A DNA stretch of 64,000 nt from Promethearchaeota archaeon (GTDB lineage: Archaea > Asgardarchaeota > Thorarchaeia > Thorarchaeales > Thorarchaeaceae): NCBI GenBank assembly GCA_048939765.1, contig JBHLPF010000020.1:1-64000 (forward strand), given 5' to 3'. Positions 4,064 through 53,154 of this stretch are shown piece by piece; the first letter of the stretch is position 1, and every line of letters starts with the position of its first letter. The notes under the pieces are model-generated. The model worked only from the letters and a program-made list of their open reading frames with translations. It did no database searches and had not been told where the DNA came from. The position numbers were made by a program, and so were the translations under genes.

Positions 4064-5110
4064 CTATCTGTCGAAGTGGGCCAGAATAGCCTGATAGACC
4101 TCGAGAGCCTCTTGCTCCGATTTGACTCCCTTGATGATTGCGTTTGCATGCGGCATGAGAGTCACCTCTACATCAGATTCTGTACGGACCTTAAGCCATC
4201 TCTTTGCTTGCTTGACTTCATATGAGGCTCCAAGTTTTTCGGCCATTAGATCCAAATCTAACCTAATTGGCGATCCAGGGGTCAAGTTGAAGGTGCCTGA
4301 ACACAAGGTGGTCACCCTTGGTGTTTCAGATGGGACGTAAGATTGTTGGGTTGGTCCCAATGAACAGACAGGGCAGTCATCATCTCGACCGATTTCAAAG
4401 AAGTCAAAGCTCAGTGATGCAATATCGATGAACATGAGGCGATTCGCCAGACGAGGCTCTTGTCCTGATGCGAGAAGAACTGCCTCTCTCACTTGGATAG
4501 ATGCTACTATGGAAAGAAGCTCCGGTGTCACTCCCACGTATGCACAAGTGTAGTCGGGATTGTCCTGAGCGTCTCCTGAAAGGCAGTGGAGACAACCGGT
4601 CTTGTCAGGAATGAAGGTACTCAGGTTACTGTGAAACTCGATTGCCCCGGCGAATACATAGGGAATCTTCAGGGACACGCTGGCTCGATTAACAGCGAAT
4701 CTGGTCTTGAAAGAGTCAAGACCATCAATTATGATGTCAGACCCATTGAGGAGAGTTCTTGCATTGTCCTCAGCCAGAGAGGCGCTTATGGGTTCGAACT
4801 CGACATCCGGGTTAAGTAATGCAAGATTTGCGGCAGCAGCTTCGGCCTTGGGCATGCCAATGTCCACTGTGTTGTATACTGTCTGCCTTTGAATGTTTGA
4901 TAACTCAACGATATCTCGATCGATAATTCGTATTTTGCCAAATCCAATGGCTGTCAATAGGCGGAGAGCCGGGCTTCCAAGACCACCAGCACCTACCACA
5001 GAAACAGTCGATGCAACTATTGATTCCATATCACTCTCTGAGAAATCGTGGAGAGCAAGCATCCGTGAATACCGTTCTTTTTGTTTTGCAGTGAGTTTCA
5101 TGGCTTTCAT
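4064..5110 (-). CDS. ThiF/MoeB/E1-like activating enzyme with C-terminal extension
   Basis: GAGGLG, D-x-V-E-L-S-N-I-Q-R-Q, two CxxC motifs, TC catalytic-loop Cys. Confidence 0.88.
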   Translation of the reverse strand: MKAMKLTAKQKERYSRMLALHDFSESDMESIVASTVSVVGAGGLGSPALRLLTAIGFGKIRIIDRDIVELSNIQRQTVYNTVDIGMPKAEAAAANLALLNPDVEFEPISASLAEDNARTLLNGSDIIIDGLDSFKTRFAVNRASVSLKIPYVFAGAIEFHSNLSTFIPDKTGCLHCLSGDAQDNPDYTCAYVGVTPELLSIVASIQVREAVLLASGQEPRLANRLMFIDIASLSFDFFEIGRDDDCPVCSLGPTQQSYVPSETPRVTTLCSGTFNLTPGSPIRLDLDLMAEKLGASYEVKQAKRWLKVRTESDVEVTLMPHANAIIKGVKSEQEALEVYQAILAHFDR

Positions 5111-29061: not shown

Positions 29062-29610
29062 CTATTCACCTCCCTTGACGAGTCGCCCAGTTCTTGTTTC
29101 ACTGAGAGTCCGTTTCACAGACTCGGTCGAGAGCCCAGGCACTTCGGGTTCTAAATCCAGGTCCTCCCTTTCCCAGTCAGCAGTGACAGTGTATAGCTGT
29201 CCCTTCTCAATGAGCTCCTTTCCAAGAGCAACGATGCTGCTTGGAATCCGACCCTCTTCAGCTGCGAGATTCTTACAGTCAAAGAAGATGTCGGTCACTC
29301 GCACATTCTGTGGACATCGTTCTTGGCACTCGAAACAAGTCAGACAAAGCCATATCTCCCTTGACGAGAGCACCTTTTCCCGCATTCCAAGAAGCATCAT
29401 CCGAATCAGCTGGTGTGGTTTGAGATTCCATATGTTCGCAATAGGACATGCTGCTGTACAAGTCGAGCAGGCAAAGCAGGCTGACAGATCATCAGCATTT
29501 GGCATGCTCTGTATCTCTCTTCGGAATCCAGGATCCAGATCTGACATATCAATGGGGTCGATGAAGACCTCAGGAGGGGCTTTCTTGGCGTTGCCTTCTG
29601 GAATGGTCAT
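29062..29610 (-). CDS. hdrC: Heterodisulfide reductase subunit C
   Basis: CFACSTCTAACP, CLTCFECQERCP. Confidence 0.9.
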   Translation of the reverse strand: MTIPEGNAKKAPPEVFIDPIDMSDLDPGFRREIQSMPNADDLSACFACSTCTAACPIANIWNLKPHQLIRMMLLGMREKVLSSREIWLCLTCFECQERCPQNVRVTDIFFDCKNLAAEEGRIPSSIVALGKELIEKGQLYTVTADWEREDLDLEPEVPGLSTESVKRTLSETRTGRLVKGGE

Positions 29611-31637
29611 GCACCTCCAGATGTCTTCTCAGCCTGTTCACGGCTTCTGTGTGCTGAGATGAGACCGAGTATCTCAGCCTCTATCTGCTCTGTTGTGAAG
29701 TTTCTTCTAGAGATGGCCCCAGTCGGACAAACGACCTGACACTTCCCACATCCTGTACATAGAAGCGAGCTCACTTCCGCCAGCCCGCCTCCGTCTTCAT
29801 TGACAACCATAGATATTGCAGCGAATGGACACACCTTCTCGCAAAGACCACAGCCAATGCATAGCGTTTTATCGAGCACAGCCTTGTCCATCTGAACACG
29901 GACTGTCCCCTTGAGGACATGTGAGGCGGCTGCACTTGCTGCGGCTTTTCCATCAGCAACACTTGCTGGAATGTCCTTAGGACTCTGACAGGCTCCAGCG
30001 ATAAATACACCCCTAGACTTGGTGTTCACGGGTTCGAGCTTCGGATGTAGTTCCTTCATGAAGCCACCTTCACTCCGGTCCACTCCAATCATATGCGCCA
30101 AATGTGCTGCTCCCGGTGATGGATCGATAGCCATTGTCAAGACAACCATGTCAAAGTTCAGACGCAGTAGACTGCCTGTCCCCTGATCAAACACGGTGAA
30201 GCTGATGCTGCCGTCCTCTTCCTCCACCATGTCACTTGGAAAGCCTCGAACAAACCTCACTCCACTCTCTCTCACTCGTCTATAGAACTGCTCGTACTCC
30301 TTACCACCGGCTCTGAGCTCATGATAGATTATCCATTGTTCAATCTCATCGGGGTACAGTCTATTGGTCATCTCAGCATGTCGCAGAGTGTACATACATC
30401 CGAAGTTACAGCACCAAGACCGATGATTTTCATCCCTTGATCCTGCGCAGTTGACATACGCAATACGCTTGGGAACCCTCTCGAACTTTGGAGGCAAGAG
30501 TATCTTCCCCTCAGTTGGTCCCACAAGACTCAATAGACGACCATATTGACCTGCAGTCAACACGTTGGTGAATTTCCCTCCTCCATACTCTGGCAGCTCC
30601 TCGATGTCCATCTCTTTGTATCCAGTTGCAGCTAGGATTGCTCCAACAGTGATCTCAATCTCTTCCTCTTCCACATCGAATGAAATGGCTTCACGAGGAC
30701 ACTTCTCTTTGCAGATGGAACAACCTTCTGTCCAGTGAAGACATGATTCCCTATCGAGAAAGAACACACCTGGGACAGCCTGTGGGAACGGCTTGTATAC
30801 TGCCTTTCTCTCTCCAAGTCCAAGGTTCCACTCATCAGGACCAGTTGCAGGACAGTTACGCTCACAGGCCCCGCAGTTGATACACTCCTCCATGTTCACA
30901 TACCTAGGTTTCTTCTTGATGCGCACCTTGAAGTTACCATAGTCTCGCTCAACATCAATAACCTCTGAGTAGCTGAGCAGCTCAATGTTCTTGTGACGCT
31001 CTATTGCAGACAGCTTGGGTGAGAGAATGCACATCGAGCAGTCAAGGGTTGGAAAGGTCTTCTCCAGACGGGCCATATATCCACCAATTGATGTGTACCT
31101 CTCTACAAGGTAGACTTTGATGTCCTTGTCCGCTAGGTCAAGAGCAGCCTGTATGCCTGCAATTCCAGCACCAATCACTAGAGTACTCTTTTCCACAGGG
31201 TATTCTTCAAACCCGATGTCCTCCAGCTTCTTTGCCCGTTCAATGGCCCCCGCCACGAGGTCATATGCAATCTTGTATGCCTCCTCTGGTTTATCACCAT
31301 GAACCCATGTGTCATGCTCTCTAAGGTTTGCTTGTGCAAGGCGGAATGGGTTGAGGCCACTCTCTTCAAGTATCTCTCTGAATAATTGTTCGTGGAGCTT
31401 GGGTGTACAGGCTCCGATGACGACACCCGTGAGGTTATGCTCTTTGACCTTCGAAGCTATCGAGTCCTGTCCATCTTTTGAACAGGTGAACATGTTTGAC
31501 GTGGAAAACACAACACCAGGATAGTCCTTGAACTCTCGAGCCAGTTTCCTTACGTTGATTACACCACCAATGTTTGTCCCACAGCTGCAAATGAAGACTC
31601 CAATCCGATCTTCCTCTTTCTTCTTCTTCTTTGTCAA
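29607..31637 (-). CDS. hdrA: Heterodisulfide reductase subunit A (canonical type)
   Basis: CSCG, ACTP, GAGIAG, KTFPTLDCSMC, CAGSRD..CC..C, GKEYE, two ferredoxin domains. Confidence 0.95.
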   Translation of the reverse strand: MTKKKKKEEDRIGVFICSCGTNIGGVINVRKLAREFKDYPGVVFSTSNMFTCSKDGQDSIASKVKEHNLTGVVIGACTPKLHEQLFREILEESGLNPFRLAQANLREHDTWVHGDKPEEAYKIAYDLVAGAIERAKKLEDIGFEEYPVEKSTLVIGAGIAGIQAALDLADKDIKVYLVERYTSIGGYMARLEKTFPTLDCSMCILSPKLSAIERHKNIELLSYSEVIDVERDYGNFKVRIKKKPRYVNMEECINCGACERNCPATGPDEWNLGLGERKAVYKPFPQAVPGVFFLDRESCLHWTEGCSICKEKCPREAISFDVEEEEIEITVGAILAATGYKEMDIEELPEYGGGKFTNVLTAGQYGRLLSLVGPTEGKILLPPKFERVPKRIAYVNCAGSRDENHRSWCCNFGCMYTLRHAEMTNRLYPDEIEQWIIYHELRAGGKEYEQFYRRVRESGVRFVRGFPSDMVEEEDGSISFTVFDQGTGSLLRLNFDMVVLTMAIDPSPGAAHLAHMIGVDRSEGGFMKELHPKLEPVNTKSRGVFIAGACQSPKDIPASVADGKAAASAAASHVLKGTVRVQMDKAVLDKTLCIGCGLCEKVCPFAAISMVVNEDGGGLAEVSSLLCTGCGKCQVVCPTGAISRRNFTTEQIEAEILGLISAHRSREQAEKTSGGA

Positions 31638-45571: not shown

Positions 45572-47275
45572 CTACTTTGCCTTCACAAGTTGCTCAGGCG
45601 TTTGGATTTTTCCTGTGAGTACCAACTCTTTCAAGATGGCGCGCGCCATTTCGAGCGCAGAGGCATCGTCATAGATTCCCTTTCCCTTCTCGCGTGCTTC
45701 CGTCAGAATATCTCTTTGAACCTTGAGCTTTAGGTCACCGACGGCTAATGGTCCAATACCGAATTTGCCAGAGGCTAATTCCCTCAAGTCGTCAGATGGC
45801 TTTAGGCCTGCAATGCCAGGTGGAGGAACGGCATTTGCATCAAGTAGTATCTGGTTGGCGGACACATTCTCAAGAAGGTCTTTGGTCACGAGTTGAATGC
45901 CTGGAGCGCCAGTCACAAAGACAAGAGTTGCTTTCTCCAATGCAGCTTGTGTTTCTTCAGGTGTTGATGCCTGAATACCCTTAATCTTGAATTCATCCGT
46001 CGACAAGCGTTCTGCTACCTCTCTAGCACGGTCGGCACTTCTTGAGGTCAGGGTGGTCTTTGCACCTGCAGCTCCGCATAGCGCGGCAACGCTTTCACCT
46101 ACAGGTCCAGTGCCTGCAAGTACGAGCACTTTCGCCTTGCTAAGTGATTTCACACCCATGGCTGGAAGGGAGGCTTCTGCCTTTGCAACCAAAGCGGCTG
46201 ATGTGGTAAATGCACCATGAGGATCAACGACGACTGCTGTCGTAAATGGCTTGACCATGGCCTCTTTCACATCTTTGGCCATCTTCCGAGCAGTAGGTAC
46301 ATCACGTCCTCCTAGGAAGAAACTCGTTTGCTTTACGCCTTTCACACCCCTAGAAAAGATGGCATCCTGAACAAGCGTTGTTACGTTGTCAGCTGATACC
46401 CTTGGATAAGGTACTACGACGTCAAAACCAGCGTCATACGCAACGCAGATGTCAAACGGACTGGCGTAATCATCCGCCTCTAAGAAAAACAGGATGTTCT
46501 GCATCTTAGTCTTAGGACGTTTTACGACAGGCACCATTTTCACAGAGGAGATTCCTGTCAGTTCGGTGATGCCTTTCACCTTACCCCCAGGAGCCTCTGA
46601 AGCTACGCTCTTGAAGGATATGGGTACGACCTCTACGTTGAGGGTTTCCATAAGTTCTCTTAAGCCTTGGAAGTGTTGCGGACTACACAGATGCAGTGCC
46701 TTGACTTTCTTCTTATTGAGAGAATCGGCTTCCTTGAGAATGCCCATCGCGATCCAGCTCTCACGGATTCCAAACTCGATGTCGCGGATTTCATCCTCAA
46801 GCTGATTCTGTAGATACTGACCGTACGTAGCAAGCTGGTCGATCTGATGCACCGTTTCAGAGTCTTCATCACGTTCAGAGAGAGACTCTATGGCTTCGAA
46901 AATCTCATTTCTTCGGTCAATCTTTTGCTCGAGACTATGAGCCAAGTAGGAGCGAGCGAACTCATCCATCTCGACAGCCTTATAGGGGACTCCTAGCTTG
47001 GCGAGTGTTTCCACGAGTGGATTCATCTCTAGAAACTCCTTTGTAGAACGCATCCCCATCTCATCTGTGACAAAGTCAGGTTCCTCCTTCTCGGCCAGTG
47101 ATTTTATCATCTCACAATAGGCCATTGAGGCGCGCTGAATGAATCTTATTCCAGACTCTGATTCCTTCAACGGAGAAGAGGTCACCCACCATGGTTCATC
47201 GTAGGCTTTCTGCACCAACAGTAAGCGAAGGCTCTTCCCTTTCAGTGGAGTAAGTTCAAGTGTTTCCAACTTCAA
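45572..47275 (-). CDS. NAD(P)-dependent methylene-H4MPT/H4F dehydrogenase (MtdA/B type) with a ~250-aa N-terminal domain
   Basis: SPFD..VAYDAG, QDAIFSRG, DPHGAFTT, GTGPVG, DANAVPP. Confidence 0.85.
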   Translation of the reverse strand: MKLETLELTPLKGKSLRLLLVQKAYDEPWWVTSSPLKESESGIRFIQRASMAYCEMIKSLAEKEEPDFVTDEMGMRSTKEFLEMNPLVETLAKLGVPYKAVEMDEFARSYLAHSLEQKIDRRNEIFEAIESLSERDEDSETVHQIDQLATYGQYLQNQLEDEIRDIEFGIRESWIAMGILKEADSLNKKKVKALHLCSPQHFQGLRELMETLNVEVVPISFKSVASEAPGGKVKGITELTGISSVKMVPVVKRPKTKMQNILFFLEADDYASPFDICVAYDAGFDVVVPYPRVSADNVTTLVQDAIFSRGVKGVKQTSFFLGGRDVPTARKMAKDVKEAMVKPFTTAVVVDPHGAFTTSAALVAKAEASLPAMGVKSLSKAKVLVLAGTGPVGESVAALCGAAGAKTTLTSRSADRAREVAERLSTDEFKIKGIQASTPEETQAALEKATLVFVTGAPGIQLVTKDLLENVSANQILLDANAVPPPGIAGLKPSDDLRELASGKFGIGPLAVGDLKLKVQRDILTEAREKGKGIYDDASALEMARAILKELVLTGKIQTPEQLVKAK

Positions 47276-47351: not shown

Positions 47352-47375
47352 CAATGACAACAATATTTGTCATTG
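47352..47375. promoter_or_regulatory. CAATGACAA-N6-TTGTCATTG palindrome upstream of the mtd fusion
   Basis: Perfect 9-bp arms; related copy at 52119-52138. Confidence 0.7.
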
Positions 47376-47400: not shown

Positions 47401-48735
47401 TCATTTCTGAGAGTGACGGGTCTTCGTCTGTGAGTGTGTAGCACATGACACACAAGGATCAAAACAGCGTATAATCATCTTGGCATAATTGATGATTCTA
47501 TCATCTGACCATCCCAATTTGCTGCAGTTTCTAGTGGCTTTGGTCAACAAATGGACCATGGCAGCAGCATTCAGTTCTGTCGGAGTACAAATGTCAATAT
47601 CGTTCACAAGCCCACCTGCACTGACTTCAAGCCGATAAAGCAGAGTTCCTCTGGAATTCTCAACGCACCCCCCACCTATGCCATCAATTGGGTCCCAGGT
47701 AGCTACTGTGCCCTCATCTGGTTTCCATATATTATCAAGAAGATGGAGTGCCCTGAGAGTACAGAACTCCATTTCATCTAGTCTAAGCAAACCAGCATTG
47801 AACATGTTCGGACCATCTCTGGCGATGCCTTCTTTCTGACCTGACAGATTCTGAATCGCAGCTAATCTTGCATGTGGACCAGTCAACAAGGGGCTGCTGG
47901 GTTCTTCCTTAAAGCTATAGATGATGCGAGTTGGTGCCTCTGATTTCCCTTGAATTTTCAAGTGAGTAGGATAGACAGAAGAGGAGAAAGCGCAAACGAG
48001 GGAATCAGATTTGATAATTGAAACTTCATCTGTGCCTGAAAATCGATGCCCCCTTGTATCGAAGCAACTTACAAACAATGGTGATTCGAGATAAAACGAC
48101 AGAATATCGTCCTGTATTTCGTTGAGGATTGATTTGTAGAAATCCTTTGCCCATTTGATTCCAGCTAATCCAAGCTGCAAAGAGCTTCGCAGCTCCTTTT
48201 GCTCTTCATCTGTTATGTTGCGAAGAAAGCCGCCTAGTGTTATTGCAGGCGCCAGGTTGGCATCGCCGGCTATTATATCGACCATCTCTTGACTACTTCG
48301 GTAGAGATTCATTCCCTGAGAGAGAAGACGCTGCTGAATCTTTCCTTTTCCCAGTGTATCCTGTCTGGAGAGTGTTTCTGTTAAGCTAAGTAGATCGGGG
48401 GATGTACAGAAGAATACACTATATGCGTGTGAACGGATAATTTCACCCAAGATGGCAAGCTCTCGAAGTGTTTCAGCTAGCGGTGGCACAGAAATACTAC
48501 TCGCCATTTCTATGGCCTTAACAGCGGCGATTCTATGTGAAACAGGACATGTTCCACAGATTCGTGCAACTAGCCTGGGCAAGTCTGCAATTCGCTGACC
48601 ACGGAGAATTTGAATGAAATCCCTGAATGTTTTCATTCGATACGTCAGATTAAGTTCGCCTCGAGCAGGGTGCCGAATCAACAGCTCACTTGGGCCGCCA
48701 ACCTTGGTGAGGGGCTTTGACAACGGTATCTTCAT
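47401..48735 (-). CDS. Divergent group 3 [NiFe]-hydrogenase large subunit (MvhA-like)
   Basis: L1 RICGTC, L2 DPCVSCATH plus a short extension; atypical TKVGG and ENSRG. Confidence 0.88.
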   Translation of the reverse strand: MKIPLSKPLTKVGGPSELLIRHPARGELNLTYRMKTFRDFIQILRGQRIADLPRLVARICGTCPVSHRIAAVKAIEMASSISVPPLAETLRELAILGEIIRSHAYSVFFCTSPDLLSLTETLSRQDTLGKGKIQQRLLSQGMNLYRSSQEMVDIIAGDANLAPAITLGGFLRNITDEEQKELRSSLQLGLAGIKWAKDFYKSILNEIQDDILSFYLESPLFVSCFDTRGHRFSGTDEVSIIKSDSLVCAFSSSVYPTHLKIQGKSEAPTRIIYSFKEEPSSPLLTGPHARLAAIQNLSGQKEGIARDGPNMFNAGLLRLDEMEFCTLRALHLLDNIWKPDEGTVATWDPIDGIGGGCVENSRGTLLYRLEVSAGGLVNDIDICTPTELNAAAMVHLLTKATRNCSKLGWSDDRIINYAKMIIRCFDPCVSCATHSQTKTRHSQK

Positions 48736-49466
48736 TAGCTCTTTCCCAACTCCGGTTTTTGATAGCGAAGGGCAAGAGCCGCTAGTTTGCGGATCTGAGG
48801 ACTGATTCTCAAGACTGAGAAGAAGTTCGCTATGGCTGCGGGCATACTTCGCTTCAATGTGCCAAAGCAGCCATCACATGGTGTTCCTGCCATCAAACAC
48901 CTCGCTTCACAACCGGCCCTTGTGATTGGACCCAAGCAGAGGACACCTTCCCGAATGAAACAGCTCTTTGGAGGCCTTGGTGGATTGATGCAGTTGATTT
49001 CAGTGGAGTAGTCTTGGTCCATTGTGTAGGGACACTCAGCGCAGACATTCTTCTCAGGAAGTATGAAATCGGTCCCTTGAATCGCAGAGAGCAATAGATT
49101 TCCCATTAGATACTGAGGCGGAGGACAACCCGGGAGCAGGGCGTGCAAATCAACATATTTGCCCACTGGGTACACTTGCATGTTTTCCGATTGACTCATA
49201 ATACCACCAAGGACTGCACAAGTTCCTAGAGCAACTATCTTCGCACCATCAGTGTAGAGCTGACGAAGGAGATTCGCTTCGGATTCATTTGTAACGCACC
49301 CTTCTACAAATGCTATCTCTGCTCGTTTAACAGAATTCTGGTCGGAGATGATAGGGAAGTAGCAAATATCCGCCGATTTTATGATATCAGGAAAGACAGG
49401 ATTTGCAAGTAGCGAAAACAAACACCCGCCACAAGAGTTGAGTTGGACGAAAGCAAGTCGAGTCAT
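48735..49466 (-). CDS. [NiFe]-hydrogenase small subunit (MvhG-like)
   Basis: SCGGC, GTCA, PGCPP, VCAEC, CLGPITRAGC..C...CDGC. Confidence 0.9.
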   Translation of the reverse strand: MTRLAFVQLNSCGGCLFSLLANPVFPDIIKSADICYFPIISDQNSVKRAEIAFVEGCVTNESEANLLRQLYTDGAKIVALGTCAVLGGIMSQSENMQVYPVGKYVDLHALLPGCPPPQYLMGNLLLSAIQGTDFILPEKNVCAECPYTMDQDYSTEINCINPPRPPKSCFIREGVLCLGPITRAGCEARCLMAGTPCDGCFGTLKRSMPAAIANFFSVLRISPQIRKLAALALRYQKPELGKS

Positions 49467-51994
49467 GTTTCAGTCGCCCCTCTCAAATCTTCTGCGAATT
49501 GATTGATATGATCTGCCACTATATGCCCTTCCAATGCTGATACTTTCAACACACGCACTCTGTTTTGTAACTCAGGCCCCAGAAACTCAATGAGCGCTTC
49601 AATCCGCTTGGTAGCTACTTGGATCCCATCGAGATGCCTACAAGCAGTTTCATGACACCCAATTAAGGTGATACCATCAAACCCAGCCTGTAGCGACGTT
49701 ATTAGAAGATCGGCATCAATAGAGACGGTACATGGCACACTGAGGAGGTAAGATCCGGCGTCATATTCGTACCGACGAGCGCCTGCATTGTCTACAGCAG
49801 GATAACCACAAGATTCACAACACAAGACTAGGATTTTGGGAGATTTTTTCCCTTTTGATAGAGCTGAGATTGCGGCCCGCATTTCATCCTGAACACTCGA
49901 TGCAGTAATAGCACCCGTGTGGCATACGACCGCACACACTCCGCAGTTTCGGCATCCAAAGGAATCTATACGAATCGTATTCTCAACAAGTGCTATGGCA
50001 TTATGAGGGCACGCCTCGACACACAGACCGCACACTCCACATTTATCCTGGTCGACAATTACCGTCAACTCGCCAGTTTCAAAACTATCGCGACCGAGGA
50101 AGAGGAGCGCCTCCAAGGCTGCTAGTTGTGCTTCACTCTCGAGCTGGGGATATGGCTTAGGACCTGTTACAGCACCACAAGCCCACACGCCTGTTGGAAG
50201 ACTCCGGGCGTCCACAAATCCTCCAGATTTGAGATTGAAACCAATTTCAGCTTGGAGCTTCGTCATGCGCTCATCTGGAGTCATTCCCATGTTGAGTACT
50301 ATTAGGTCCCCACTGAAGTCACCAACATCAGTCTTGATAACATGATGACGCTTCCTCATGTACGATTGCAGGACATTGCAGACATGTACACGCTCGTCCT
50401 CAGGAATTATTCCAGTGTGCGCGTGTGGTAAGCGTGAACGCTCATATAGAACCTTGACTGAAATCTCGTCATCCATATCATCTATTAGACCCATGTATTT
50501 GTGTGCAACATTGCAGCAATAACCGGAACAGACAGTTTCAGAACCTACACACTGTAGGATGATTAATGATTTCACAGGCTTCCCATCGGAAACGCGAAGG
50601 ATTCGTCCTTGAGTGGGGCCATCAGGAGCAAGCATGCGTTCAAATTCGTAGGATGATACAACATCATTGTAGGGATCATAGGACAAGGGATGAGAAGAAG
50701 TCAAATCTTCAGCATTAGGAAGAACTGCACCAGTGGCTAGGATAGTCCCTCCAACTGTGAACTTGACAATCTTAGATTCTTGATCCAGATCTATTGCATG
50801 TGATGGGCATGCCTCCAAGCAGTCACGACATGACTTGCAGAACTCGATATCGTCTACCTCAATGACGGGCTTATGAGGATAGGCAAATGGACAAGGCAGG
50901 TGAATTATTCGATGTTGTCCGATGCCAAGCTCAAACTTATTGGGCCTGGTTTCCGGGCAGGCCATGGTGCATTCTCCACACATTGTGCAGCGAGTTAAAT
51001 CGACATAGCGTGGAGATTGGATGGCTGTGACTTCATAGTTACCCGCCTCTCCTGTTATGCTTGCGAGTTCGCTTTCCGTGAAAATGCGCACATTTCCAGC
51101 AAGCATGACCGATGAAACTAGCTCACTAATCATACAAGGGCTGCAGTCGACTGACCCATGTATTCGTTCCCAGTGTCTAGCAGTTCCACCCAGACAGGGA
51201 GCACTCTCGATTAGTATCACCTCTAACGGAGACTTGGAAAGCACGTTAGCTGCAATCAATCCTGCAATTCCCCCACCGATGATGGCCACGCTCTTGCGAA
51301 TAGGTACCACCCTCCTTGTAGCATGGACATAGTGATGTAGCTTCGCCACACTGGCCGCAATCAATAACAGTGCTTTTTCGGTAGCCGACTCAGGATTGCG
51401 ACGATGGACCCATGAACAATGCTCTCTGATATTGGCGAACTCAACAGGCATCTCAAGTTGTTCGCATATCTTGCTGAACAAGTCATGGTGTAATCTTGGA
51501 GAACAGGCTGCGACTACCAGACCATTCAGAAAGTGCTTGCCGCACCACGACTTAATCTTCTCCACATTATCTAGCATGCACAGGAAGGGGAAAATCCTCT
51601 TGGCCATGACAGTTGGTAGCTCTGAAACCTTTTCTATGAGTGCTGTTGTGTCTATCGCACGGTCAATCTCAGACCCGCATGAACATAGGATAACTCCAAT
51701 TCTGTGAACCCTATCAATGGTTTCAGTGATGTGTGCCTCAGTTGGTCTACCAGTCATTAATTGATCTTTTGTTGACATGAGACGGACTGCATTCTGACCT
51801 GCTGCTGTAAGCCGATAGAGGCCGTGATGCTTCTCTACGAATCCATCTAGCTTCTTGAGATGATAGTTTAGTAGGCCAGTTTCATCTAGTCCTAATCTAC
51901 TCAACAGGGTCTTGTAGGGAACCAACCGATCAGAATCAAGAAGCTTCAGTATCTTTTCTCGCAAAGGATGTGCGAGGGCAGCGTATATGTTCAT
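49463..51994 (-). CDS. Winged-HTH-HdrA-MvhD fusion protein
   Basis: ALAHPLREKILKLL...LLNYHLKKL...YRLT (ArsR-like wHTH); CSCG, ACSP, GGGIAG, DCSPC, ferredoxins (HdrA); CCESC, VPC, GCHETACRH (MvhD); probable start ATG 51994. Confidence 0.88.
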   Translation of the reverse strand: MNIYAALAHPLREKILKLLDSDRLVPYKTLLSRLGLDETGLLNYHLKKLDGFVEKHHGLYRLTAAGQNAVRLMSTKDQLMTGRPTEAHITETIDRVHRIGVILCSCGSEIDRAIDTTALIEKVSELPTVMAKRIFPFLCMLDNVEKIKSWCGKHFLNGLVVAACSPRLHHDLFSKICEQLEMPVEFANIREHCSWVHRRNPESATEKALLLIAASVAKLHHYVHATRRVVPIRKSVAIIGGGIAGLIAANVLSKSPLEVILIESAPCLGGTARHWERIHGSVDCSPCMISELVSSVMLAGNVRIFTESELASITGEAGNYEVTAIQSPRYVDLTRCTMCGECTMACPETRPNKFELGIGQHRIIHLPCPFAYPHKPVIEVDDIEFCKSCRDCLEACPSHAIDLDQESKIVKFTVGGTILATGAVLPNAEDLTSSHPLSYDPYNDVVSSYEFERMLAPDGPTQGRILRVSDGKPVKSLIILQCVGSETVCSGYCCNVAHKYMGLIDDMDDEISVKVLYERSRLPHAHTGIIPEDERVHVCNVLQSYMRKRHHVIKTDVGDFSGDLIVLNMGMTPDERMTKLQAEIGFNLKSGGFVDARSLPTGVWACGAVTGPKPYPQLESEAQLAALEALLFLGRDSFETGELTVIVDQDKCGVCGLCVEACPHNAIALVENTIRIDSFGCRNCGVCAVVCHTGAITASSVQDEMRAAISALSKGKKSPKILVLCCESCGYPAVDNAGARRYEYDAGSYLLSVPCTVSIDADLLITSLQAGFDGITLIGCHETACRHLDGIQVATKRIEALIEFLGPELQNRVRVLKVSALEGHIVADHINQFAEDLRGATET

Positions 51995-52118
51995 AGTTGT
52001 ATCGCCCTTTAACCTGACTAGTTCTGGTGGAGCCCGCAGGAGCCAAGAGCTTCCCGTGCTAGACAGGACACCGAAACTTGCAGTTTCGTTGTCAGGTCCA
52101 CATTCTTTGCGAGCAATC

Positions 52119-52138
52119 ATGACAATAAATGTTGTCTT
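52119..52138. promoter_or_regulatory. ATGACAA-N6-TTGTCTT palindrome upstream of the wHTH-hdrA gene
   Basis: Same arms and spacing as 47352-47375. Confidence 0.65.
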
Positions 52139-52476: not shown

Positions 52477-53154
52477 ATGAAGCTCGACAAGTCCGTGATT
52501 GGTCTAATTTCCTTATTTTTCGGACTTCTGGCATATTATCTACTTGCAATTGTAGCCATCTTCAATTACTCCGAACGCTTCGATATCTACAATGATTTAT
52601 GGACCCATCTCCGCTGGTTTGAGTATAATCTTGAGGGTGCATTGTTCTTTAGAATTGGCAATGTGCTCTATGCACTCACATTGGCAATCTTCTTCCTAAG
52701 TGCTAGTGGATGGCAAAGTGCAGTTGCGGAAAGGAAATCTTCAATCTATCTCATTCAGACGATTGGCATCTCCATTGCTATTTCGATGATAATTCGTGAA
52801 GTTCTAGCTGATCAAGCCAATATATTTGCCATTGCATCAGGAGCAGGTCTATTGCTCACTGTGATCATTCTAGTTGGAATTGCATTCTCATCATGGAGTT
52901 ATCCGGAATTCTGGAGGGCGTCGATACTATTCTTCATCATTAGCATAATATTGAGTTCATACTTGCTATATATGGGAATCATCGATGCACCTATTCAAGA
53001 ATTCAGAATTATTGATTTCTTGGTAACTGTTTTCAATCAAGCATCAATATTTGCAATTGCGCTAAACATGGCCAAAATCCAATCCCATAACTCCGCAAAT
53101 ACAGTACATATCAAAATAGAAGGGCGTTCAGCAATGCAGGTATGCTCTTGTTAA
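52477..53154 (+). CDS. Multi-TM membrane protein
   Basis: About 6 hydrophobic segments. Confidence 0.65.
   Translation: MKLDKSVIGLISLFFGLLAYYLLAIVAIFNYSERFDIYNDLWTHLRWFEYNLEGALFFRIGNVLYALTLAIFFLSASGWQSAVAERKSSIYLIQTIGISIAISMIIREVLADQANIFAIASGAGLLLTVIILVGIAFSSWSYPEFWRASILFFIISIILSSYLLYMGIIDAPIQEFRIIDFLVTVFNQASIFAIALNMAKIQSHNSANTVHIKIEGRSAMQVCSC

Follow-up and report, generated by a model that had tools for sequence, protein, structure and literature searches.

The question raised by the 64,000-nucleotide stretch analysed here (the window: positions 1 to 64,000, forward strand, of contig JBHLPF010000020.1, assembly GCA_048939765.1, from a Promethearchaeota archaeon) is why a protein with the build of an electron-transferring HdrA-MvhD subunit, encoded with the genes of a [NiFe]-hydrogenase, should begin with a domain of the kind found in transcriptional repressors. 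The gene in question (49463-51994, minus strand) codes for a product of 843 residues, in which the initial annotation had recognized a fusion of a winged helix-turn-helix (wHTH) domain with HdrA and MvhD and had seen part of a transcription-factor complex. A transcription-factor role is well supported by comparative genomics, in agreement with that proposal, because of the predicted winged-helix fold, the conservation of the fusion throughout the Asgard archaea and the occurrence at its genes of a palindrome tied to the presence of the fusion. That the winged helix is a DNA binder, the direction of the regulation and its control by redox state or H2 are what we infer from these comparisons. 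The reading that we favour, to which we assign about an even chance, is that of a trigger enzyme or sensor resembling PutA, in which the HdrA dimer would bind a TGAYAA-N6-TTRTCA operator.

The true start of the open reading frame (ORF) 49463-52120 is the ATG at 51994, where an N-terminus of the form M-[ND]-[IV]-Y-x-x-L-x-H-P is kept in 31 orthologous loci; the longer ORF from 52120 was rejected, its 42-codon upstream extension not being conserved among the same loci. Residues 3-72 match PF24038 (DUF7347; E 4e-13, 49.9 bits against a cut-off of 27.6), residues 98-838 match the HdrA2 family NF040770 with 497 bits, a score below the 1100-bit equivalog cut-off, and residues 721-838 match PF02662 (MvhD; E 1.4e-25, 90 bits against a cut-off of 22.3), while NF041778 is matched with 315 bits against a cut-off of 1400. 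The best match in the PDB, the HdrA of 5ODC (5ODC_A), aligns with residues 98-697 (E 3e-98), and the MvhD part also aligns with the MvhD chains of 8RVU, 5ODC and 9SW2. The wHTH-HdrA-MvhD architecture is thus borne out. A search of 5.8 billion proteins returned approximately 30 clusters of fusion proteins, 92% down to 36% identical, all of 840-857 residues, all with PF24038, HdrA and MvhD, and labelled by source as Hermod-, Hod-, Prometh- and Lokiarchaeota; the next-best matches after this family are HdrA2-type proteins with 30-33% identity. The survey of Asgard genomes that the initial annotation had suggested was carried out with residues 1-230 as the query in a search of 400 species genomes from the phylum, counting only matches in which a single frame runs from the winged helix through the linker into the HdrA N-domain. 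The fusion was found in approximately 118 of them (approx. 30%), single-contig genomes included, each time as a single open frame of approximately 850 residues; within the family to which the window belongs it is confined to 7 of 85 genomes. Furthermore, the junction and the upstream palindrome are bridged by contigs assembled independently in two other studies. On both counts an assembly chimera was rejected: the fusion is no artefact and has been kept across Asgard lineages. In the literature, no mention of DUF7347 was found, nor any paper in which an HdrA or a subunit of a hydrogenase carries a DNA-binding domain, or in which a winged helix or helix-turn-helix (HTH) is joined to HdrA as a regulator.

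Modelling supports an ArsR/SmtB-type winged-helix fold for the N-terminus, as had been expected for its first 80 residues or so and in line with the PF24038 match above cut-off. When the domain was modelled alone with 37 relatives, the predicted local distance difference test (pLDDT) score was 84, with a core above 90, and the order of the elements was H-H-H-H-beta-beta-H, the two strands forming a hairpin. Its residues score about 85-95 in predicted structures. In the full-length model (pLDDT 83) residues 82-94, 13 in all, fall below 50, and the head is therefore predicted to hang on a flexible tether; the columns of the linker are not conserved among orthologues. The closest structural neighbours of the 97-residue model in Foldseek are ArsR/SmtB repressors, with template modelling (TM) scores of 0.55-0.69 and a probability of 1.00 for the top ones, the E-values being only approximately 2e-3, so that weight was put on the consistent family of the hits and on the TM-scores. 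They comprise CadC, ArsR-like proteins, SrnR, PagR, Rv0081, HlyU, NolR on DNA, SmtB and CzrA. With CadC (1U2W), SmtB (8QKF), CzrA (1R1V), DNA-bound NolR (4OMY) and HlyU (4K2E) the head shares the fold and the helix order, including the C-terminal alpha-5 helix, as well as the HPxRxxIL and xxHLxxL signatures, and the operators of these repressors are palindromic, as is the palindrome described below. The head differs from them in being fused to a redox body of approximately 750 residues, in its Pfam placement (DUF7347, not HTH_5) and in lacking metal- or thiol-sensing residues: residues 1-97 contain no cysteine and no sensing site of the alpha-3N or alpha-5 Cys/His cluster type. Across the family H9, P10, R12, T39, G40, N43, H45, L46, Y60 and G66 are invariant, and those within the recognition helix TGLLNYHLKKL (T39, G40, N43, H45 and L46) are unchanged down to 36% overall identity. 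In a search of 1.8 billion representatives, 490 relatives of the domain were found, most of them free-standing archaeal proteins of 90-450 residues.

The head also occurs apart from HdrA. In L042 (1225-3201; G358:C113) it is fused directly to X-MtdA, the product that in the window is encoded after the hydrogenase genes, giving a protein of 658 residues. In the metagenome contig L050 (200-481) it forms a free-standing gene of 93 codons (P0123), which overlaps the start of the gene downstream of it, probably X-MtdA and truncated where the contig ends. The sublineage without hdrA and mvh genes thus retains the winged helix, either free-standing or fused to X-MtdA, and both forms fit a deletion of the hdrA-mvh genes that would have spared a DNA-binding head.

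Both palindromes pointed out in the initial annotation, at 47352 and 52119, are real, and their TGAYAA-N6-TTRTCA half-sites are identical. The first is found at the same position and with the same motif in L005 and L006, and the palindrome recurs at the same places of the cassette across distant lineages. Within 300 nt of the start of the fusion gene, 19 of the 31 orthologous loci carry the motif with at most one mismatch, in a bimodal distribution (0-1 or 3-4 mismatches). With the spacer set at N6, a perfect match was found 17 times in the upstream DNA of 28 oriented loci (41 kb) and a match with no more than one mismatch 45 times, by which 22 of the loci are covered; none was found in 58 kb of their coding sequence and none with the reversed control, and spacers of 3-5 or 7-9 gave 0-5. 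Perfect sites also lie between mvhA and the next gene in L001, L035-L037, L039, L040 and L044, three of which (L037, L039 and L044) belong to genomes of the window's family that have the site before X-MtdA and none at the operon promoter. The 3.37-Mb genome as a whole contains 20 copies of the core motif where approximately 16 are expected, and 17 of them are inside long ORFs; the intergenic copies are only three, namely the two at the cassette and one unrelated site with a GC-rich spacer. A site at C108:1668 was judged to be a chance occurrence from its GC-rich spacer and the lack of related genes nearby, as was a third core motif of the window (4591-4606), which lies inside a gene. Scans of five fusion-bearing genomes found 3-8 exact sites in each, with 1-3 in the cassette in every one, and a sum of 28 against 7 for the reversed pattern; in five genomes of the same family without the fusion the sum was 10 against 12 for the control, with no clustered sites. 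The excess of the palindrome and its clustering at the cassette are seen only in fusion-bearing genomes. In Loki-type (f22) genomes, pairs of sites at a constant spacing of 167-169 bp were observed upstream of the FrhB-like gene that heads the fusion operon (L045, 10925 and 11093; L047, 11435 and 11603; also L022, L029, L030 and L031).

The main rival of a regulatory reading, which we consider unlikely, is that of a purely enzymatic complex, in which the winged helix would be a structural adaptor docking X-MtdA, an FrhB-like protein or another copy of the complex, and the palindrome would be bound by an unrelated regulator. Winged helices are common as protein-protein modules, and the fusion of the head with X-MtdA in one genome is readable as a Rosetta-stone link. 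A precedent exists in BamF, an MvhD-like adaptor of an HdrA-type complex, whose wHTH motif contacts BamI in the structure of a class II benzoyl-CoA reductase and serves purely as a protein-protein interface (bioRxiv 10.64898/2026.04.10.717634). The two proteins have in common a wHTH associated with an MvhD-type adaptor in an HdrA-type flavin-based bifurcating complex; the motif of BamF is structural, whereas the head considered here is N-terminal to HdrA, is carried by a predicted disordered tether and is accompanied by a conserved palindrome. Besides the precedent of BamF, other observations speak against a trigger enzyme acting at its own operator. Related genomes are not independent samples, and the site counts given above overstate significance accordingly. 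No site lies within 1.5 kb upstream of the fusion gene in 6 of the 28 loci, even if three of the six, with downstream DNA examined, carry one before X-MtdA instead. The locus with the winged helix-X-MtdA fusion (L042) has no palindrome, the upstream DNA containing only direct half-sites, three of the TTGTCA/TTGTCC type. The structural reading, on the other hand, has to contend with the membership of the domain in an extensive family of archaeal wHTH proteins, mostly small and free-standing (most of the 490 matches), with DNA-binding repressors as its nearest structural neighbours, and with the disordered linker that carries it. Palindrome excess and clustering track the presence of the fusion, and no other regulator gene is conserved in the cassette among the orthologous loci inspected. 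Given the gene order, the X-MtdA fusion is more simply explained by a deletion of the intervening hdrA-mvhD-mvhG-mvhA.

The trigger-enzyme reading also depends on the state of the redox body, and here the residues expected to bind cofactors are kept throughout. The HdrA body consists of an N-terminal domain with four Cys, a TrxR-like flavin adenine dinucleotide (FAD) domain, a Cys pair, inserted and C-terminal ferredoxin domains, HA4-type cysteines and K499. The FAD motif GGGIAG is found at 240-245; the DCxxC pair C284/C287 is invariant, and so are the cluster cysteines of the N-terminal domain (C104, C106, C139 and C164), those of the further clusters (C336/339/342/346, C386/389/392/396, C652/655/658/662 and C681/684/687/691) and those of MvhD (C726, C729, C755 and C785). 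Three deletions, of 6, 9 and 8 residues, mark the TrxR-like domain of the whole family, that of 8 removing the HPK segment and that of 9 the GK-x-YE segment. The initial annotation had correctly seen that the latter is missing here and kept in the canonical HdrA of the window (29607-31637), which carries GGKEYEQFY, but was mistaken in attributing the contact with FAD to its Lys. The residue in contact with N5 of the flavin is Lys409 of 5ODC (PMC6405883, PMC13514486), which sits in a CCMYAMK motif outside GK-x-YE and aligns with K499, invariant in 28 orthologues. The further suggestion that the wiring has been repurposed away from catalysis is unsupported, since nothing is missing from the FAD motif, the Cys pair or the cluster ligands. 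At the Lys409 position the canonical HdrA of the window has Arg (YTLRHA), while the fusion protein keeps Lys.

The HA4 motif (C...CxxxCC) is present in the window protein as QCVGSETVCSGYCC and its cysteines have been lost in the Loki-type clade of the fusion (P0028-P0032). Cluster HA4 is the high-potential exit toward HdrB, and the N-terminal HA3 has a shuttle role (PMC13580544); the HA4 equivalent E4 feeds BamD in benzoyl-CoA reductase (bioRxiv 10.64898/2026.04.10.717634). As the initial annotation had stated, no hdrBC genes are present in the operon, and none were found in the 8 orthologous loci inspected, HdrBC existing elsewhere in the genome, so that it may still act as a partner in trans. 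This absence and the HA4 loss in the Loki-type clade point to an HdrBC-independent enzyme, as far as can be read from the genes. With every cofactor site kept, the fusion protein probably still moves electrons between H2 and ferredoxin without HdrBC, which would make it a trigger enzyme and not a dead sensor.

With the MvhAGD-HdrABC complexes of methanogens (5ODC, 8RVU and 9SW2-9SW6) the module shares the HdrA domain order, the FAD motif, the N5 lysine, the DCxxC pair, the HA3-, HA5/6- and HA1/2-type cysteines, the four-Cys MvhD, a group-3-type MvhA and an MvhG. It differs from them in having no hdrBC in the operon, MvhD fused to HdrA, the three deletions, the N-terminal winged helix, an MvhA without the canonical RxEGH glutamate and scores far under the NCBIfam equivalog cut-offs. 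The best match at the level of families is HdrA2 (Methanosarcinales, Archaeoglobi and Bathyarchaeia), which has the same layout of HdrA with C-terminal MvhD but no winged helix, and which retains GxxYE and HPK. HdrA2 has HdrB2C2 as its partner, and no hydrogenase of its own is encoded alongside it. Of separate interest is the HdrA gene that in f22 genomes lies divergently to the fusion operon (L045:8716-10455, minus strand; also L046 and L047), which is split by an in-frame stop after ...TDDCAI. The stop falls at the second Cys of the DCxxC pair and fits a selenocysteine HdrA, of the kind reported for Asgard archaea (PMC11227280).

The fusion gene overlaps mvhG by 4 nt (ATGA) and mvhG overlaps mvhA by 1 nt, the overlaps that the initial annotation had described, and in the orthologous loci inspected mvhG and then mvhA follow the fusion. 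A separate hdr cluster of eight genes and cdhAB are found elsewhere in the window. Contig C86 of the same genome (1691-10575, outside the window; L051) contains a canonical hdrC-hdrB-hdrA (913 residues)-hdrA (588 residues)-mvhD-mvhG-mvhA cluster whose MvhA keeps TRLEGHG, so that the hydrogenase of the window is a second, divergent one of the genome. Its MvhA contains RICGTC and DPCVSC, in keeping with the RxCGxC and DPCxxC motifs of group 3c (MvhAG) large subunits, and the four Ni-ligand cysteines are kept. It reads KVGGPSE where 5ODC has TRVEGHG (RxEGH, with the proton-transfer glutamate), and P or G occupies the position of the canonical Glu in L001 and L039; R[IV]EGHG is retained in the Loki-type clade. 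Only those MvhA sequences that lack the canonical Glu have one four residues further on, and L002 shows the reverse, with the canonical Glu kept and Ala at the later position; thus, the carboxylate may have moved rather than vanished. Two smaller observations belong here: MvhA of the window ends in a 10-residue tail (47401-47430) after the DPCVSCATH histidine, at which the Loki-type clade ends, and a small ORF between mvhD and mvhG on C86 (3930-4259) gives weak ArsR-type HTH matches below cut-offs (HTH_5, E 0.0016; HVO_A0114, E 0.0075).

These features bear on a second alternative, that of a dedicated H2 sensor without metabolic flux, in which MvhAG-MvhD-HdrA would only report H2 to a palindrome-binding winged helix. 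Bacteria possess regulatory, H2-sensing [NiFe]-hydrogenases of group 2b, HoxBC-HoxJ-HoxA or HupUV-HupT-HupR, which signal through a histidine kinase and a separate response regulator, and the sensor would be the counterpart of such systems in a single complex. In HoxBC/HupUV systems, too, a second divergent hydrogenase is linked to gene control and not to the main energy metabolism; here, in contrast, it is the electron-transfer subunit that carries the predicted DNA-binding domain, the large subunit is group-3-like and the host is an archaeon. All the operator evidence applies equally to this alternative, which gains from the separate canonical hdr-mvh cluster on C86, from the replacement of the RxEGH glutamate in the MvhA of the window, from the three HdrA deletions around the HA4 region without an HdrBC partner encoded nearby, and from the loss of the HA4 cysteines, and with them of the high-potential exit, in the Loki-type clade (PMC13580544). 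We nevertheless regard a flux-free sensor as improbable, since the other clusters, the FAD motif, the N5 lysine and the Cys pair have been kept over a long divergence, which is more than a sensor seems to need. Moreover, the loss of the canonical Glu is paired with the appearance of the later one, that glutamate is kept in the Loki-type clade, and in f22 genomes an FrhB-like gene heads the operon, suggesting a real electron acceptor.

At the level of sequence, the architecture of a trigger enzyme is found at this locus: enzyme and putative DNA-binding domain are in one chain, with a predicted operator at the chain's own genes. PutA of enterobacteria is such an enzyme, a flavoenzyme with an N-terminal DNA-binding domain, in which the redox state of the FAD switches the protein off its operator; its head is of the ribbon-helix-helix type, it contains neither an Fe-S relay nor a hydrogenase, and the switch involves membrane binding. 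The likeness consists in the DNA-binding head and flavoenzyme within one polypeptide, in the operator in its own control region and in the flavin redox state as the switch proposed here, the differences in the type of head, a winged helix in the present case, and in the unrelated enzyme family. In the trigger-enzyme reading, a soluble [NiFe]-hydrogenase module, with MvhA-MvhG wired via MvhD to the HdrA flavoprotein, would have an HdrA-MvhD subunit that doubles as a local transcription factor. Since HdrA is, to our knowledge, a homodimer in every solved complex, two tethered ArsR-like heads would be presented, one per half-site, as fits a two-fold operator. Because the sites overlap the TATA-like AT-rich spacers before the operon and before X-MtdA, binding would most likely repress. 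The winged helix is joined to the HdrA N-terminal domain, which in methanogen Mvh-Hdr complexes forms with MvhAGD a mobile arm that switches states during turnover (PMC13580544). The state of the redox centres or of the arm, set by H2 through MvhAG and by ferredoxin, could then alter how the two heads are placed relative to each other and thereby how firmly they bind DNA, the arm being, by analogy with those complexes, a plausible mechanical link between redox state and head geometry. In its most complete form the proposal is that a single soluble complex would detect H2 and would itself act on DNA, the [NiFe] site reducing the MvhD-HdrA relay, the arm moving and the HdrA dimer releasing or gripping the operator, so as to set the expression of the hydrogenase and of methylene-tetrahydromethanopterin (H4MPT) dehydrogenase; this is advanced tentatively, as a possibility well short of an even chance. 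The weakest alternative, a constitutive autoregulator that would bind the operator according to protein amount or assembly state only, as a dosage feedback without redox or H2 input, can draw on the same operator evidence, on the free-standing form of 93 residues (P0123, L050), which indicates that the domain can exist without the redox body, and on the lack of a cysteine or obvious ligand site in the winged helix, but appears very improbable, a simple autoregulator being expected as a separate gene and the long retention of the fusion in approximately 118 genomes, always on the mobile-arm domain, being hard to explain without input from the body.

The genes around the cassette outline a candidate regulon (table 1). 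X-MtdA is present in only 10 of 86 genomes of the window's family, among which are 6 of the 7 that carry the fusion. Its domain X has no Pfam match (window 46511-47275); the invariant residues of this domain include R171, E172, W174, H201, F202 and G204, and its co-folding with the winged helix gave a score of 0.00, which weighs neither for nor against an association of the two. In Loki-type loci (L003) X and MtdA are separate genes of a divergent operon that shares the operator region, and a shorter paralogue of domain X adjoins the domain X gene. The f22 genomes have a cluster of approximately 17 kb in which sites are found at three promoter regions: the first serves the X paralogue and X-MtdA, the second an HdrCB-like protein, a 1037-residue HdrA-like protein, MvhD and an FrhB-like protein, and the third an FrhB-like protein, the fusion, mvhG, mvhA and a membrane protein with a HATPase_c domain. 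This membrane protein is encoded directly after mvhA in Loki-type loci (L046:17158-18213, L003:12630-13679 and L048:3460-4167) and has, in L046, a C-terminal histidine-kinase-type ATPase domain (HATPase_c, E 1e-20); a second regulatory input to the cassette through it is possible. Other candidates for the binder of the palindrome were also considered. No hidden small regulator ORFs were found in the intergenic gaps, and the divergent gene of 225 codons at 52477-53154 was rejected as a regulator, as it has no family match and is not conserved beside the orthologues. The free-standing DUF7347 protein at C50:19969-20433, a membrane-tailed wHTH protein in an ATP-binding cassette (ABC) transporter operon, is approximately 35% identical to the fused domain and is an unlikely binder.

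Table 1. Positions in the window of the fusion gene domains, the putative operators and the adjoining genes.
Feature	Position	Strand	Basis or remark
Operator-like palindrome 1, minus strand AGACAACATTTATTGTCA	52120..52137		126 nt upstream of ATG 51994; AT-rich TATA-like spacer
Winged helix-turn-helix domain, residues 1-81	51752..51994	-	DUF7347, ArsR/SmtB-like; PF24038 match, predicted fold
Variable disordered linker, residues 82-97	51704..51751	-	Low pLDDT, columns unconserved
HdrA body, residues 98-712	49859..51703	-	NF040770, 5ODC alignment, conserved cofactor residues
C-terminal MvhD domain and stop codon	49463..49858	-	PF02662; invariant C726, C729, C755, C785
mvhG-like [NiFe]-hydrogenase small subunit, 243 residues	48735..49466	-	VhuG NF045875, E 9e-36, below cut-off
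mvhA-like [NiFe]-hydrogenase large subunit, 444 residues	47401..48735	-	5ODC_F, E 2.5e-37 (best PDB match); motifs
Operator-like palindrome 2, TGACAACAATATTTGTCA	47355..47372		29 nt after mvhA stop, 80 nt upstream of X-MtdA start
X-MtdA: unknown domain X of approx. 250 residues and NADP-type methylene-H4MPT dehydrogenase (MtdA)	45572..47275	-	Mpt_N; MtdA structures 1LU9, 6TGE, E 3e-43

Hydrogen exchange is central to the syntrophic lifestyle of the Asgard archaea and to hydrogen-based models of eukaryogenesis. The locus offers a system for direct testing, with a predicted operator of 18 bp, a domain of 97 residues and two candidate promoters, one of them at a step of the Wood-Ljungdahl pathway, while the characteristic deletions of an apparently HdrBC-independent HdrA-MvhD lineage help to tell which parts of HdrA serve the high-potential branch. 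If the trigger-enzyme reading is true, a hydrogenase electron-transfer subunit acting as a transcription factor would represent a new design of signal transduction, with no kinase and no second messenger, and the small class of trigger enzymes would extend to the machinery of flavin-based electron bifurcation. If, moreover, the complex senses H2, it would have no forerunner in any organism as a hydrogenase coupled directly to a promoter, nor in archaea as an H2-sensing regulator, and it would lie in a lineage that is central to syntrophy models of the origin of eukaryotes.

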